Shown one piece after another: positions 1,321 through 8,111 of a stretch of 64,000 bases of DNA. Within the stretch, counting starts at the first letter, position 1. Each line of letters opens with the position of its first letter. The translations under genes and the position numbers were made by a program. Under the pieces are notes generated by a model. It saw only the letters and a program-made list of their open reading frames with translations. It was not told the DNA's origin and ran no database searches. Origin of the DNA: Nitrospirota bacterium (GTDB lineage Bacteria; Nitrospirota; UBA9217); the NCBI GenBank assembly GCA_963749655.1, contig CAVVOB010000023.1, positions 32,001 to 96,000 of the forward strand, in the 5' to 3' direction.

Positions 1321-1522
1321 GTGAATTATTGCGGGCTGGAGATCAGCATCCCGATTGGCGGTGATCCCGGCGTCAAGGGATTCTATACGTGGAGGCTAGG
1401 ATATGAAGGGTTTAGCGGAGATTTAAGCAATAGTCCAACAGTATAGACCTGACCCCAGGATGTTTCTTAGCATAATGCAAAGCACTTTGGGAACCAACGT
1501 CCCTGAGTCATCCTGCGCACCA

Positions 1523-4271
1523 TTAAGGCAATTCACTCGCCTTCGTTACAACCCTATACGGCACCCCAAGGGCGCCGATGAAATGCTTTTCGCCGCACTT
1601 GATCTTTCGGGCTTCATCGGTATGCAGCTTACTCATATCAGTTGTGCTCTTCGTTTCCCGGACAAGATAGAGCAGCTCTTCTCCGGTCGGCTGGCCGTGC
1701 GCGTCGCGCGGCTCCATGACTATCGCCCAGTCGGGATTGTACTCCCCTACCGGCGTCGGGACCGTGAACCAGCTCGGCAGTTTGAGATAGAGCTTCACGT
1801 CGTCGCGGTGTTCGAGGTCCTTCACGAACTCACGTTCAGGTCCCGATTCATAAATCACGTGGTCATACACTGATCGCTCAGCAGGGACGAGATAGTCAGC
1901 CCAGCTCGGAATATCTACAAACTGCTCCATCTTATACCATTCATTGATCTTCTCATACTGGATGCCGTTCACGAGCTGATCGAGAATCTTGTCCTTGATG
2001 ATCCGGACTGCCACGCTCGCAAATTCGTGCGGATTTTCGACAGCGGCTTTCTTGCTGTTGGAGCGCTTGTAAACTTCAAGCAGCGTTCCCCGCGTGAGCC
2101 GCACCGGCGGGGTCGTATGCTCCATGAGATTCGCCATGATCTCAAGAAGGTTCGGCAGCGGGTGCCTCTTGTCCAGGTACAGAACCGGCCGGTCCGCGCT
2201 CACCTGGATCGCGTCGAAGGTGTCCGCGGTATTGACCGCAAGTTGCGCCTTGGTCACGGTTACGCGCGGTGGCTTGATCTCGGCCTTGTCGAGTTCAGGC
2301 ATGACATCTGCCAGAAGTTTCTCGGTGTCGATCTTGACCGCGTACCGGGTCTTGTGCTTGATCCTCGACCAGAGCTCCTTGAATTCCGGCCTGAGCGTGT
2401 ATTCCTTGCGGAGCTGCACAGTAACGCGTTTGCGGGCATCCGCCGGCCTGGGCGGCAGGCCTTCCTTGCCGTACTCGTCCTCGATCTCAGACTGCAGCCG
2501 CTCACAGTATTGCTGATAGCTCTCATTCGCAACCACCGTCAGTACGTTGACCTTTTCATCCCGTACCCGGTCGCCCGACTGATCCACGGCAAGCCGGACG
2601 CCTCGCCCGACTTCCTGTCGTTTCTTGACCTCTGAGGTCGTCTGGTTCAGGGTGCAGATCTGAAACACGTTCGGGTTGTCCCAGCCTTCGCGCAAGGCTG
2701 AATGCGAGAAGATAAATGACACTGGCTCTTCAAAGGAAAGCAGACGCTCCTTGTCTTTCATAATGAGGTCGTAGGCTGCCTCGTCTTCCTTGGTCTTGCC
2801 CGAAACCGAGTCCAGTACTTCGACAATTCCGCCTTTGCGCTTCTTCTGCGCGAAATATGACGCTTGGACGGTCGTAGGATCAACGTTTTTCCAATCCGGG
2901 AACTTCGTCTTTGTATCATTGAATGCCTTGATAAACAGCTGCCGGATGATCCCGGTTTCCAGCGCGTAGTTGTCCACCTTGTCGATGAAGAAGAGCGACA
3001 GGACCTTGATGCCTGATTCCTTGAGCTTGGCCTGCTTTCGAAAGTGCTCTTCGATGGCGTAGCGAATCTGCGCTTCAAAGATGGCGTCCTTGTCCGCTCC
3101 GCGCGACTCGCCGGTTTTAAGTTCAACATTGTTGGCGAACCGGACAAAGCCGCCGCCGGGGTTGATCTCGTCAACCTCGAATCCGAGCGTATTCCTTGCG
3201 CTCCGATTTCTTTTCGAGCGAATCGCCCGGCTGGATCGTGACGACCTGTTCCTTGACCGTGCCGTCTTTCATGAGCTTATGAAGCGCAAGTCGGGCAGTA
3301 ATGGTCTTCTTCTCGGTCTTGATGCTGTCCAGGCGCAGGAAGACCTGATTCGCGTCGTTTTCCTTCACGACTGAAGCAACTTCTATGCGTTTGACGAGCC
3401 CCTGCCGGTACGCTTCAAAAGGCGTTAGCCGATAAATGACGTTGTAGGGGTTGCGATGGGTGGCGCTGTAGCGAAGGGCAAAGAGCGGGTCGAGGGCTGA
3501 AAGCGCCTTGACGCGAAGCTCGCTTTCCATGTTCTGCGGCTCGTCGAGAATCAGGACAGGCCGGGCAGCCTGGACAAGATGGATCGGCGTTTCGCCCTGC
3601 AGCCGGTCCGTGGTCTGGCGGATCACGTTCGAGGCCTTGTTAAAGGAATCGATGGTCATGACCATCATTTCCACGCCGTCGGCATTGGCGAAACTCCGCA
3701 CCTGGGAAAGGTTGTCGGAATCGTAGACGTAATAGCGATACGGCGCGTTGCCGTACAGCTCGTTCAAGTGTTTCTCCGTTACCTGCAGGGTCTTGAGAAC
3801 GCCTTCCCGGATCGCAACGGATGGGACGACGATAATGAACTTCCGCAAGCCGTACCGCCGGTAAAGCTCAAGCGCCGTGCGCAGGTAGACGTACGTCTTG
3901 CCGGTGCCGGTCTCCATTTCGATGGAGAAGTTCGGAAATCGCACCTTCTTCTGTCCCGCTGCCGTCTCGATCGTCTCTTCGATCAGCGCAAGGCTCGGAT
4001 CCAGTTGGATGCCGTTTGCGCGCTGAACGTTGTTGAGGTTGAACAGAAGGTCGTCTTCGGTAAGGTTCAGGGTATTGGCGATTGTGCCGGGGAGGATTTC
4101 GGACAGCACGTATTGGCCGCGCTGCTCGGGCGGGAGAAGCGAAGTCTGGCCGTCGCCCATGCCGATGAACACCGACGCGCCGGAAATGCGCTGCTGGCCT
4201 TCAAGCAGGTTGACCGCAGCTTCAACGGCCTTGATTTGGTATTCCTGATTTGCGTCGAATTTGAATTGCAT
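1523..4271 (-). CDS. res: Type III restriction enzyme Res subunit, split by one frameshift near 3190
   Basis: METGTGKT (Walker A), DEPQ, YSAT, ALREGWDNPNVFQICTL, QEVGRGVRL, nuclease YNPDWA..ETK; the shifted frame continues LGFEVDEINPGGGF..GIKVLSLFFIDKVDNY. Confidence 0.92.
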
Positions 4272-4296
4272 CGTTTATTCTGCCGTTTTTTTAATT

Positions 4297-4370
4297 TGTC
4301 ATTCTGAGCGCCAGCGAAGAATCTCGCTCTTGCCTGAAGTAACGAGACCCTTCGCTTCGCTCAGGGTGAC
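4297..4370. repeat. Inverted pair of REP-like palindromic units
   Basis: TGTCATTCTGAGCGCCAGCGAAGAATCTCG (4297-4326) and CGAGACCCTTCGCTTCGCTCAGGGTGAC (4343-4370). Confidence 0.9.
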
Positions 4371-4396
4371 GGAAAAGTAGTTTGCACGCAGCAGGC

Positions 4397-4702
4397 TCAA
4401 TTACTCGAAGAATCGCTTTCCGCGTACCAATCCGCACTCAAATCATTCCACGTAGGATTCATTGTTTCAATCAGAGCAATCTTCTTCGCCCTGAGCCAAC
4501 CCTTGATCTGTTTTTCACGAGTGATTGCCGCCTTGACATCAGGCGTTTCTTCAAAATAGACCAATCTCGAAATGTTGTATTGAGCGGTAAAGCCGGGCGC
4601 CACCTTGTGTTTATGCTCAAAGACACGCTTTACGAGATTGTTTGTCACACCGGTATACAGCGTCTTTGACTTATTGGTCATGATGTAGACGTAGTAGCTC
4701 AT
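4397..4702 (-). CDS. Small GIY-YIG nuclease (UPF0213-like)
   Basis: YYVYIM..LYTGVT..RVFEH..REKQIKGWLRAKKIALIE; 101 aa. Confidence 0.92.
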   Translation of the reverse strand: MSYYVYIMTNKSKTLYTGVTNNLVKRVFEHKHKVAPGFTAQYNISRLVYFEETPDVKAAITREKQIKGWLRAKKIALIETMNPTWNDLSADWYAESDSSSN

Positions 4703-4708
4703 AGTTCA

Positions 4709-4888
4709 GCGAAAGAGATTCTTCGCGGAGTTTATCCTGAGCGAGATTCTTCAGTCGCTTCGCTCCTTCAGAATGACAGTGCTTTGTCACCCTGAACGAA
4801 GTGAAGGGTCTCGGTTCTCGACACATGCAAGCTTCTTCGCGGAGGTCAATCTGAGCAAACCGAGATTCTTCGCTTCGCTCAGAATGAC
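4709..4888. repeat. Cluster of nested palindromic units between 13-bp direct repeats
   Basis: Units at 4742-4778, 4785-4813 and 4861-4889, plus partial units at ~4715 and ~4833; AGCTCATAGTTCA at 4696-4708 and 4889-4901. Confidence 0.88.
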
Positions 4889-4898
4889 AGCTCATAGT

Positions 4899-5207
4899 TC
4901 ATCGGGTTGCATAAAGAACATGCTTTGTCTTCCGTAGATAATCTTTCCGGAACGGATTGCGGACCGCGCTTTCTTCCACAAGATGGACATCATGGCCGAA
5001 TATAATTTTCAGCTCATCGATCATTTCGACCCATTCATAAAGACTCTATCCTGAATTTATTTCGAGATGCACGGCTATATCGATTTTGTCTTCTTCGTTC
5101 AGTTCGCCCTGGACAGCGGAGCCAAACAGTGCAAATTCAGCAACCTTCCACCGGCGACAGAATTCTCTGATTTTGTCCATATGAACATCAATCTTCGTCT
5201 GCACCAT
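4899..5207 (-). pseudogene. Minimal nucleotidyltransferase (MNT antitoxin-like) with an in-frame TAG
   Basis: MVQTKID..FCRRWKVAEFALFGS..DKIDIAV..SG*SLYEWVEMIDELKIIFGHDVHLV..RNPFRK..YATR; TAG at 5046-5048, then the reading frame continues. Confidence 0.8.
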
Positions 5208-5246
5208 AGATTCTCCTATCAGGCTGTTGATAAAATAAATCTCAAA

Positions 5247-5375
5247 TGTCACTCTGAGCGCAGCGAAGAATCTCGGTTTTCCAATTTCACCAGATCCTTC
5301 ACGCAGCCTGTCCTGAGTCAACGGCGAGACCCTTCGCTTCGCTCAGGGTGACGGACGAAGGGGTTCAGGATGACA
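5247..5375. repeat. Palindromic units of the same family, with nested copies
   Basis: TGTCACTCTGAGCGCAGCGAAGAATCTCG (5247-5275); AGATCCTTCAC...GTTCAGGATGACA (5292-5375) encloses CGAGACCCTTCGCTTCGCTCAGGGTGAC (5325-5352). Confidence 0.88.
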
Positions 5376-5401
5376 GCTTAAAATACTTTTTCGACTACTT
5401 T

Positions 5402-7267
5402 CTATATCGTCTTTAACCTGCACTGAAGAGCGAGGTTCGCAACCAGTTCGTCGGTCATTGCCTTATCGCGGCAAATGAACAGGTCGTTCTTTCCCAAAGC
5501 CAGCGCCCGGATCGACGCGGGCTTCAGTTCTTCATCAAGGCAAATGCGGAAGCTCTGCTCCTTGTCCGGGTCCGTAACGTGATACACGGCGTTTTCTGTG
5601 ATGCCAGTCATGCGGATGATTTCGGAATTGAGCCCGTATCCTTCCTTGATAGCAACTTCCCAAACCACGTTCTCGGGCTTCCAGCCGGGAACAAAAGGAT
5701 CGGCAAACGCCGCCATCTGCGCTGCGTATGCCTCGGGGTCTTTATTCTCCGGCCCGGTCCATGGCTTGTAATTGGACTCGGCGAGCTTGAAAACCTTGAA
5801 CCCCAGGTCCTCGGTCTTTTCGCCGTCCTTAAGATCAAGCTTGCCGTCCTTTTCTTTCTTCATTTTGGCAATGACACGGCGGATGCGCTCTTTGCCAATT
5901 TCGGCAATTGTCGCGTACTCTTTGTTCTGAAGCGGCTCGGGTAACTGCACTACAATGAACCTTCGCTGTCCTGCATCTTCCCGATTCTGCTCAATAACAG
6001 CTTGCGCCGTTGCGCAAGAACCTGCAAAAAAATCTAAAACTATATCTTCACCTTTGGACGTTGCTAATTTTAACATGTGCCTTATTAGCCGTGGCGGCTT
6101 CGGTGTATCGAAAACGCTATCGTTAGCGTCAAAAGGGACTAATTCCAGCAGCGCTTTCTTTGCTTCTTGTGTATGTCCAACATCCTGGTATTTCCATAGA
6201 GTTTGAGGCACGATGCCAGCTTTGACATCCGACAGGAATCGTTTCAGCCGAGGCATATTGTTTCCATCATCACCCCACCAAATACGCTTATCCTTGTCCA
6301 GTTCATTAAATTTCTGCTTTGATACACGCCAGTATGTGCCTGTAGGAGGTCCCTCAATAACTCTCCCTGAAGGACATTTCACCGAGTATTTCCCTTCGCT
6401 GTAGTAATTTCTTGCACAGAGATCGGATGATGCCCACGCCCCCCTCGCATCTCCGTCAGGATTACCATAGCGCGACTCCATCTCCTCTGTCCGTGGCAGT
6501 AGTTCGGGAATCCATTTCATAGCATCGCGAGCGTAAACCATGATGTAATCATGATCTTCAGAGAAGTGTTTGGCTGTATTTTTCGGCGAAAATATCTTTT
6601 GCCATACAACAGTAGCCAAGAAATTCTCTTCACCGAATATTTCATTCATAACCATTCGGAGATTGTGCATTTCATTATCGTCAATGCTGACAAAAATAAC
6701 GCCATCGTCCCGAAGCAACTGCCTCGCTACAAACAACCTCGGATACATCATCGAAAGCCACGCCGAATGGTAGCGCCCTGATGTCTCAGGATTATTGGTT
6801 AGCATGTTTCCTTCAGCAGTCTTCTGGCCGGTGAGCTTCAGATAAGTATCGAGCGGATCGGCGAAGTTGTCAGGGTAGACAAAATCGTTGCCCGTGTTAT
6901 ACGGCGGGTCGATGTAGATCATCTTCACCCTGCCGAAATAAGACTTGTACAGGAGTTTCAGGACTTCGAGGTTGTCCCCTTCTATGAAGATATTATTCGT
7001 CTCGTCGAAATTGATGGAATCCTTTTTCGCCGGCACGAGCGTCGCCCTGCTCGGTGTCTGCAAGAGCCGGATCGCATCGCGCTTCCCCGCCCAGGAAAAC
7101 GAGTACCGCTCGGGCCGTGAATCTACCTCTTCGCCCAGCGATTCCCTGAGTTTGTCGAAATCGATCTTCCCTTCGGTAAACGCCTGAGGGAACAGGTCCC
7201 GCAGCTGCTCCATTTGTTCAGGAACAATGGCGGCGGTTTCTTTCTGTACAGGTTCTTTGTTGATCAT
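5402..7267 (-). CDS. mod: Type III R-M DNA methyltransferase Mod
   Basis: IEGDNLEVLK, YIDPPYNTG, FDTPKP, VLDFFAGS; upstream of res on the same strand. Confidence 0.95.
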   Translation of the reverse strand: MINKEPVQKETAAIVPEQMEQLRDLFPQAFTEGKIDFDKLRESLGEEVDSRPERYSFSWAGKRDAIRLLQTPSRATLVPAKKDSINFDETNNIFIEGDNLEVLKLLYKSYFGRVKMIYIDPPYNTGNDFVYPDNFADPLDTYLKLTGQKTAEGNMLTNNPETSGRYHSAWLSMMYPRLFVARQLLRDDGVIFVSIDDNEMHNLRMVMNEIFGEENFLATVVWQKIFSPKNTAKHFSEDHDYIMVYARDAMKWIPELLPRTEEMESRYGNPDGDARGAWASSDLCARNYYSEGKYSVKCPSGRVIEGPPTGTYWRVSKQKFNELDKDKRIWWGDDGNNMPRLKRFLSDVKAGIVPQTLWKYQDVGHTQEAKKALLELVPFDANDSVFDTPKPPRLIRHMLKLATSKGEDIVLDFFAGSCATAQAVIEQNREDAGQRRFIVVQLPEPLQNKEYATIAEIGKERIRRVIAKMKKEKDGKLDLKDGEKTEDLGFKVFKLAESNYKPWTGPENKDPEAYAAQMAAFADPFVPGWKPENVVWEVAIKEGYGLNSEIIRMTGITENAVYHVTDPDKEQSFRICLDEELKPASIRALALGKNDLFICRDKAMTDELVANLALQCRLKTI

Positions 7268-7277
7268 TCGTCCATCC

Positions 7278-7430
7278 TTAATGACATGGCCTGTAAGAGG
7301 TATATTTCTTAGCCGATCCCTTGGCCTTTTCAGCGGGATACTTCATTTCATTCTGCGCGATCTTCTTCTCGACTTCCGCAAGCAGGTCGATTTTATATTC
7401 CTCACAAAGATAGGTGAGGAAGATAAGCCC
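7278..7430 (-). pseudogene. C-terminal remnant of a MazG-like nucleotide pyrophosphohydrolase
   Basis: LIFLTYLCEEYKIDLLAEVEKKIAQNEMKYPAEKAKGSAKKY resembles a dCTPase/MazG-like C-terminus; the N-terminal half is absent. Confidence 0.65.
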
Positions 7431-7491
7431 GAAGGGGACGTTGTTGCGCCCGTTGCTTCGGTGTTTTCCCCTGCTACCGGAGAACTGCGGC

Positions 7492-7875
7492 TCATGGGAC
7501 GAACTTTCGTACTTCCAGACCCGGTATTTTCTTAAAGTGTTTATGATTCGCGGTGACAAGCACGTCGTCTTCCCGCAGCGCTGTTGCCGCCACAAGCGCA
7601 TCGATCGTCCTCAGTCCGTCCGCCGATGCATGCCCTTCGAGCAGCGCGATCGCCTTTTCAGAAATGTGTTCATCGGGAGGAACGACCGCCGCGATGTTCT
7701 CGCGAATGAAATCTTTTACCTCACGCAGCTCCTGCCGGTCCCGGCAGCCCTGCACCAGCTCCATAATGCAAAGGGAGCTCACCTGCCGGTCCCTGTAGGC
7801 GATGCCGGCGATGAGCCCCCTTGCTTTTTGGTTGCCCCGGAAATACCAGATCAACACGTCGGTGTCGAAGATCAT
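7492..7875 (-). CDS. vapC: VapC PIN-domain toxin
   Basis: MIFDTDVLI..ELVQG..DALVAATA..LVTANHKHF; ATGA overlap with the antitoxin. Confidence 0.92.
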   Translation of the reverse strand: MIFDTDVLIWYFRGNQKARGLIAGIAYRDRQVSSLCIMELVQGCRDRQELREVKDFIRENIAAVVPPDEHISEKAIALLEGHASADGLRTIDALVAATALREDDVLVTANHKHFKKIPGLEVRKFVP

Positions 7876-8111
7876 CGCGGATACCGCTCTTTTCTCCGCT
7901 CCTTGAGCCACTTCGCCACATCCGTCATTTCCTTCCGGCCTTTCCATATGCCGAATCCGACAGGACTGAACGGTTTGTTAATGTCGCTCACGGGTCTCAT
8001 AACGGCGATGGATTTCCCCCGCATCGTGATGACCACCTCGTCGCCTTTCCTGACGCGCTCAAGAATTGCCGACGCATTAGTGCGAAGCTCTTTTGCCGTT
8101 GCCGTCTTCAT
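7872..8111 (-). CDS. Phd/YefM-family antitoxin
   Basis: MKTATAKELRTNASAILERVRKGDEVVITMRGK; RBS AAGGAGG. Confidence 0.9.
   Translation of the reverse strand: MKTATAKELRTNASAILERVRKGDEVVITMRGKSIAVMRPVSDINKPFSPVGFGIWKGRKEMTDVAKWLKERRKERYPR

Follow-up and report, generated by a model that had tools for sequence, protein, structure and literature searches.

Ssn proteins are single-domain GIY-YIG nucleases of about 94 amino acids (CDD cd10448) that bind only to single-stranded DNA, at a directional hairpin, and cut upstream of it (Chenal et al., Nat Commun 2025, PMC11893778). Their target, termed NTS in Neisseria and SRM in general, begins with CGTCATTCC…; one or more SRMs lie near 71% of ssn genes, 42% of the genes are flanked by SRMs on both sides, and the four homologues assayed were all specific for single-stranded DNA, hairpin and strand, with upstream cutting (PMC11893778). 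The Discussion of the same paper likens the NTS-ssnA-NTS arrangement to an insertion sequence (IS) and draws the parallel with RAYT transposases and their repetitive extragenic palindromic (REP) elements (PMC11893778). In Neisseria, the family restricts the uptake of transforming DNA that bears the hairpins. Here we describe a locus in a 64,000-nucleotide stretch of a Nitrospirota bacterium (assembly GCA_963749655.1, contig CAVVOB010000023.1, positions 32,001 to 96,000; hereafter the window), in which a gene for a 101-amino-acid GIY-YIG protein lies among palindromic repeats between mod and res, the genes of a type III restriction-modification system. It is very probable that this protein belongs to the Ssn family and that its sub-lineage has these palindromic units as cognate hairpins, a reading that includes the miniature inverted-repeat transposable element (MITE) and the locus history set out below. 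The partnership of Ssn proteins with hairpins is already published; what is new is a hairpin class with two G·A mismatches in its stem, which we call GA-type.

All positions are window coordinates, and genomes, contigs and loci carry labels in G, C and L; the source draft genome (G000) has 4,272,696 bases in 39 contigs and is 86.6% complete. The 101-amino-acid open reading frame (ORF) matches the Pfam GIY-YIG model PF01541 over residues 3-74 (E 4.6e-15), as the initial annotation had recognized, and no further Pfam or NCBIfam family scored above cut-off. A second domain of the kind found in GIY-YIG homing endonucleases was not detected, the group I intron endonuclease model reaching 17 bits against a cut-off of 56, and the closest solved structure is a UPF0213 protein (E 2.8e-4). 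Our analysis establishes the identity of the protein at the level of the family. Scanning one genome per species yielded 291 relatives, and all counts over 79 loci refer to the best 79 of these 291. Those 79 proteins are 65-78% identical to the 101-amino-acid protein and span Chloroflexota, Cyanobacteria, Acidobacteriota, Deltaproteobacteria, Ignavibacteria, Sumerlaeota, Nitrospirae and others. DNA similarity between this locus and the 79 loci stops at the ORF, where it is about 70%, and so points to no recent donor. The same genome encodes a paralogue (contig C30; 53% identity) that has on each side a unit matching the published SRM search motif, and these units depart from the NTS definition at a single covarying stem pair; about 15 more NTS-like units, counted by eye with the published SRM expression, are dispersed in the genome.

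The nuclease and the GA-type hairpins belong together. A GA-type unit occurs within 200 nt of the nuclease gene at 66 of the 79 homologous loci (upstream at 59, downstream at 53 and on both sides at 46). Units number 206 in the 31,199 bases near the gene versus 5 in the 44,352 bases lying more than 300 nt away, a density ratio of about 58-fold, and resampled sequence contained none. The type of hairpin also follows the identity of the nuclease: relatives at 59-72% identity carry GA-type units (five of five, L012-L016), those at 56-58% have other stems, and those at 47-53% have NTS-type units or a variant. At 50-53% identity the flanking units are of NTS type, and at two loci (L020 and L022) they correspond exactly to the published NTS definition. 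Of 16 loci from relatives, 13 have GTCA-led hairpins on both sides according to a simple detector, and a fourteenth was recognized by eye. Both comparisons that the initial annotation had suggested, of homologue flanks and of nuclease lineage with repeat variant, therefore bear out the association.

Around the nuclease gene the full units number seven; one further unit is split and several are partial, and most stand, as first described, in inverted pairs with their GTCA ends outward (Table 1). The unit is about 28 nt long and reads GTCA, two pyrimidines, CTGA, (G/A)CG, one or two nucleotides, AG(C/T)GAAG, two purines and TC. It is predicted to fold, behind the conserved GTCA lead, into a covarying 5-bp stem, a G·A and an A·G mismatch, two G-C pairs and a loop of 3-4 nt. 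A strict pattern of the unit matches six times in the draft genome, always at this locus (window 4298-5352), with no match elsewhere in the 4.27 Mb; within the family, 27 of 64 genomes contain matches to it, and none contains a match to the reversed control pattern.

The stem covariation noted at first reading is real. Of 99 simple units from the 79 loci, 94 have complementary dinucleotides at the variable stem positions, against 26.8 on average and at most 40 in 1000 shuffles, although these counts include copies related by descent and so overstate the number of independent events. Five stem types occur among the 99 units, and their inner pair is G-C in 93, A-T in 6 and mismatched in none. 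The G·A positions remain purine-purine on one strand only, which would suit a structure formed in single-stranded DNA more than a symmetric duplex site. A half-unit relic encodes the last codons of the ORF, and the homologue at L012 likewise terminates within its downstream unit.

How gene-less hairpin pairs move can be traced at one place in the locus. The 182-nt element beside mod is an insertion relative to the orthologous loci L042, L043 and L044, whose mod/mnt junction lacks it: it lies between ACGATATAG and GAG, with ATAG on both sides here and a single ATAG in the three orthologues. It is 89% identical over 147 nt to a copy at a different site in a relative (G066, contig C7). The element has inverted ends with the consensus CAGG(C/T)TGTTGAAAAAG and 4-bp duplications; its right end agrees with the consensus at 14 of 16 positions, and 14 of 19 such end pairs, from loci of G000, G066, G065 and G021, have identical 4-nt flanks. 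The same ends and a TTAG duplication delimit a full IS of 1370 bp in G066, which encodes a 361-amino-acid transposase with DUF772 and DDE_Tnp_1, a pair of domains that we take to be characteristic of the IS5 family. A candidate for a full IS in the source genome (two end-like matches 1.8 kb apart on C35) proved to be a duplicated response-regulator region instead.

Elements of this kind are not limited to GA-type cores. In the source genome the same IS5-type ends also enclose NTS-type hairpin pairs, in elements of about 140 nt that have TTAA or CTAA duplications and a core of two stem types. Like inverted ends, with a CTAT duplication, surround a very different interior without hairpins at C20:5733-5883. 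Two other end types, containing CTGTTG, carry a similar hairpin-pair core. Moreover, a 133-nt element in G073 (L086-L103) has different inverted ends, 6-bp AT-rich duplications and 17 copies, of which 13 have identical 6-nt flanks; the copies are 97.7-100% identical (median 99.2%), a sign of recent activity. Over 74 nt, hairpin pair C, next to res, shares 81% identity with the core of this element. At least four MITE backbones that differ in their ends thus contain a similar hairpin-pair core. Judging from these ends and duplications, DDE transposition accounts for how gene-less pairs have spread in this lineage.

It would be tempting to go further and regard paired Ssn target hairpins as the conserved core of several unrelated MITE backbones, at least three with kinds of IS5-type ends and 4-bp duplications and a fourth with 6-bp duplications. 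We put this forward only tentatively, as rather doubtful. If it is true, the recognition sites are spread by DDE transposases and not by the nuclease, which would be a third party; the nuclease might then cut single-stranded hairpin-marked DNA (incoming, replicating or transposing), or use the pairs as landing pads.

Some of the units at this locus are nested. A second motif ending in CTGAG follows CTTC(G/A)C at 4727, 4841 and about 5305, and a complete unit lies inside 5292-5375, both as the initial annotation had reported. It had read these as three insertions at the same point of the host unit; the positions stand, and a better reading of the arrangement is that one compound form is present three times. 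The order in that form is an outer half, a reversed half, a full unit, a reversed half (with GTTTA for GTCA) and the other outer half. This seems the simplest reading because the same order recurs upstream of nuclease homologues in two Terriglobia genomes (L194 and L198; 2 of 79 loci). Un-nested counterparts of the 182-nt element exist: eight G066 copies have 4 nt (CGAA) at the nested site, and one G066 copy carries the same insert. The nested segment is, from this comparison, a real insertion relative to the un-nested copies, and because one G066 copy shares it, it was inherited along with the element and not made on the spot. The compound form itself could first have originated by loop-directed insertion, by template switching in a palindrome or by conversion from another compound copy.

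Orthologous loci in three genera of the same family (L042, L043 and L044) reveal the ancestral arrangement, mod-mnt-hepT-res, with overlapping or abutting genes and no hairpins. Their Mod proteins are 67-76% identical to that of the present locus, and Res, where present, 83-92%; the mnt pseudogene is 38-51% identical to their mnt. At L042, after the start of res (2769-2940; G070), the last 41 codons of mod recur (93% identical), followed by an unrelated ATPase-like gene, a local rearrangement. Similarity to the hepT starts of the three loci ends after the fifth codon, and the former place of hepT is taken by the 177-nt hairpin block, the nuclease gene and a hairpin pair. The Res protein of G066 aligns with this res in one frame for residues 1-362 and in another for residues 363-866, and res has one base more than its G066 counterpart near 3185 (window 3140-3230), which means either a broken subunit or an assembly error. 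The toxin gene of a toxin-antitoxin pair has thus been replaced, and the restriction system around that pair is in decay, barring assembly errors behind the breaks in mnt and res. The initial annotation had a selfish element landing between mod and res: the nuclease and its repeats do lie there, but what they entered was a four-gene arrangement, in which hepT was replaced and mnt and res are broken. The 177-nt block (4712-4888) may be later than the nuclease gene, because it is bracketed by a 16-nt direct repeat that includes the nuclease start codon.

Throughout 1500-7300 of the window every gene is on the minus strand, in the order mod, 182-nt repeat cluster, mnt with its TAG, 177-nt repeat block, GIY-YIG ORF, repeat pair and res (Table 1). 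Directly upstream of mod (7278-7947) there are a PIN-domain gene and a weak MazG-like ORF, which strengthen the defence and toxin-antitoxin character of the surroundings.

Table 1. Genes, hairpin units and mobile elements at the locus (window coordinates) and related elements elsewhere in the source genome.
Feature	Position	Strand	Remarks
res, type III restriction subunit	1523..4271	-	Pfam ResIII 3171-4271, RE_endonuc 1523-2977; +1 frameshift near 3185
Hairpin pair C	4297..4372		full units 4297-4326(+) and 4343-4372(-); 16-nt spacer; GTCA ends outward
GIY-YIG nuclease gene, Ssn-like, 101 aa	4397..4702	-	PF01541; single-domain, intact
Half-unit relic encoding final codons of the ORF (…DSSSN, stop)	4397..4420	-	inverted repeat 4392-4420 vs 4711-4739, 79% complementary
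16-nt direct repeat	4696..4711 (copy 1)		copy 1 across nuclease start codon; copy 2 4889-4904; 15/16 identical
Compound hairpin at nuclease start	4715..4778	-	partial unit 4715-4741 (half unit 4715-4726, second motif 4727-4741); full unit 4741-4778, long loop
Hairpin unit, ACCCT stem, GAACGAAGTGA centre	4785..4814	+	full unit
Second compound hairpin	4830..4889	-	partial unit 4830-4855 (half unit 4830-4840, second motif 4841-4855); full unit 4860-4889
hepT remnant, 7 codons, ATG…TGA	4892..4912	-	stop overlaps copy 2 of the 16-nt repeat
MNT-type nucleotidyltransferase (antitoxin) pseudogene	4899..5207	-	in-frame TAG 5046-5048 (from translation)
IS5-type MITE, 182 nt, hairpin-pair core	5220..5401		inverted ends 5220-5235 and (diverged) 5386-5401; ATAG duplication 5216-5219/5402-5405
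Hairpin unit of MITE core	5247..5276	+	full unit; one stem mismatch
Nested 61-nt segment in apical loop of split unit	5303..5363	-	split-unit halves 5290-5302 and 5364-5375; contains full unit 5325-5352
mod, type III modification methylase (N6_N4_Mtase)	5402..7267	-	PF01555, E 8.5e-37; stop codon within duplicated ATAG
NTS-core elements of about 140 nt	G000 C12:114349-114487, C15:69064-69205, C15:123981-124119, C15:159856-159994		

We propose that the 101-amino-acid protein would bind single-stranded DNA at the directional GA-type hairpin and cleave immediately 5' of that hairpin. Its gene would have been gained by horizontal transfer and would have displaced the hepT toxin of the mnt-hepT pair that lay between mod and res; afterwards the mnt gene, now useless, would have acquired its stop codon and res its frameshift, an order of events that we infer. 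Gene-less hairpin pairs would be separate pieces of DNA, the pair beside mod being a MITE mobilised in trans by an IS5-family DDE transposase.

Several observations weigh against this proposal. The placement of the protein in cd10448 is indirect, through relatives: those at 50-53% identity with their NTS-type units, and the homologues of Coleofasciculus and Calothrix described below. Nearest-neighbour DNA folding of single units yields the proposed hairpin at energies no better than those of shuffled sequences (z -0.86 to +1.03), and the hairpin claim therefore rests on covariation and not on energy; the compound form alone stands out (4826-4890, -14.9 kcal/mol, z -3.28, 0 of 200 shuffles equal). 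With the draft in 39 contigs, extra copies of the repeat could be unassembled. As to the MITE, its left end differs from the consensus at 5 of 16 positions (11/16 identical), and the source genome holds no close IS5-type transposase, the best match being 32% identical over part of the protein. The nuclease cassette itself shows no duplication, and IS5-type ends surround the cassette at none of the 79 loci. Finally, the published degenerate SRM motif has no match in window 4201-5450 and none at the 79 homologous loci. The GA-type class appears to lie beyond detection by that motif. Homologues with 72-76% identity are present in Coleofasciculus and Calothrix, genera for which Supplementary Data 4 of Chenal et al. 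gives cd10448 homologues and a published-motif enrichment of 0.8-1.3 fold, i.e. none (PMC11893778), consistent with GA-type hairpins escaping the published detection.

The initial annotation had also held that the GIY-YIG nuclease nicks the hairpins and spreads them in the manner of RAYTs, nuclease and hairpins forming an autonomous selfish element, an idea that was likewise raised in the Discussion of PMC11893778. The tight association of gene and hairpins, the IS-like geometry with GTCA ends outward on both sides and the joint change of nuclease lineage and hairpin type speak for it, as does the scatter of the closest homologues over many phyla, which implies that the cassette moves. However, the strict matches to the unit in this genome are confined to the locus (6/6), and 14 of the 27 unit-bearing family genomes have no Ssn-like gene at E<=1e-10. 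At that threshold the gene occurs in 21 of the 64 family genomes, namely in 13 of the 27 unit-bearing and 8 of the 37 unit-free ones (cross-tabulated by hand). It is missing from 6 of the 11 genomes with at least 10 units (G028, G065, G066, G073, G077 and G080) and from two assemblies of only seven contigs, G065 (16 units) and G079 (8 units), although the absence of a gene from draft genomes is weak evidence. G073 is a case in point: 17 near-identical copies with 6-bp duplications are found there and no relative of the nuclease, a soft miss, as the Pfam GIY-YIG model matched nothing in that genome, not even the expected UvrC. Furthermore, the traceable insertions have inverted ends and duplications that match a DDE transposase, and the single insertion reconstructed at the locus, the 182-nt element, is of this type. 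GIY-YIG enzymes hydrolyse DNA, and we know of no joining activity among them. A transposase role of the nuclease finds no positive support here, and we regard nuclease-driven spread as improbable.

Somewhat less probable still is homing, in which the nuclease would cut gene-less pairs and repair from a cassette copy would insert the gene between the paired hairpins, so that dispersed pairs, including those borne by MITEs, would serve as landing pads. Classical homing endonucleases do occur among GIY-YIG enzymes, and the units have the same orientation in gene-less pairs and in gene-bearing cassettes. Nevertheless, none of the 79 cassettes lies between IS5-type ends, the two arms of the MITE core are different hairpin subtypes whereas those of compact cassettes are alike, and no pair of loci was found that differs by the gene alone.

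That the hairpins are host regulatory or structural elements, such as terminators or protein-binding palindromes, whose proximity to the gene reflects autoregulation only, is in our view very unlikely. The units are intergenic, and regulation was the role first considered for the hairpins by Chenal et al. (PMC11893778). Yet the retention of purine-purine mismatches on one strand only is unlike a symmetric duplex binding site, the insertions are polymorphic and accompanied by duplications, and such hairpins are cut by relatives of the nuclease (PMC11893778).

Mobilisation by an HUH (RAYT/IS200-like) transposase encoded elsewhere can be practically dismissed: the genome has nine Y1_Tnp matches, one of them 2.5 kb from the C30 paralogue, but none adjoins a hairpin unit, in keeping with the lack of a linked RAYT noted in the initial annotation; in five relatives with 29 Y1_Tnp matches the nearest is 2.4 kb from any listed unit (measured by hand), G028 has 22 units and no Y1_Tnp match, and to our knowledge HUH single-strand transposition makes no target duplications, unlike the elements here. 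The nine matches are ORFs of 150-330 amino acids, three within 8 kb (G000 C23:125592-133672, outside the window) and the others in six further places.

Our results indicate that the Ssn/hairpin partnership extends to a large cross-phylum sub-lineage that is invisible to the published search motif; since the motif misses GA-type units, motif-based surveys undercount the partnership. They also supply checkable evidence on how the hairpins spread, a point left open in PMC11893778: the traceable insertions here are DDE-type MITEs, and many genomes keep or amplify hairpins without the nuclease. For users of enzymes, in addition, the G·A-containing hairpin may provide a distinct recognition site on which a site-specific single-strand nuclease could act. 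The GA-type sequence returned only three unrelated primer matches from the literature and is absent from 12 of the 14 supplementary files of PMC11893778, files 13 and 14 lying outside that search. A literature search, including a word search of PMC11893778, found no published link between Ssn hairpins and MITEs, nor any account of a three-way relation of nuclease, hairpins and DDE transposases.

The locus thus combines features of several known systems. Like the published Ssn/SRM systems, it has a single-domain GIY-YIG protein of about 100 amino acids whose gene lies between inverted copies of a directional hairpin starting with (C/T)GTCA(T/C); the hairpin type varies with the protein lineage, gene-less copies occur elsewhere, and the C30 paralogue has NTS-like units. 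Unlike them, it has a hairpin whose Watson-Crick stem is shorter, which contains two G·A mismatches and which the published degenerate motif does not cover; compound forms with three nested tiers are present, and the GA-type units are not dispersed in this genome. The element beside mod resembles IS5-family MITEs in having the ends of a full DUF772+DDE_Tnp_1 IS, in its 4-bp duplication at NTAR-like sites, in being non-coding and in its empty orthologous sites, but differs from the usual ones in having paired Ssn-type target hairpins as its core. As with MNT-HepT pairs, mnt and hepT overlap between mod and res in the relatives; here, in contrast, hepT is reduced to seven codons and mnt has an in-frame stop. 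With REP elements, bacterial interspersed mosaic elements (BIMEs) and their RAYTs the locus shares short palindromic units, inverted pairs of two subtypes and clustering at a small nuclease gene, whereas the enzyme fold is another one, no HUH gene is linked, and the dispersed copies have DDE-type ends and target duplications.

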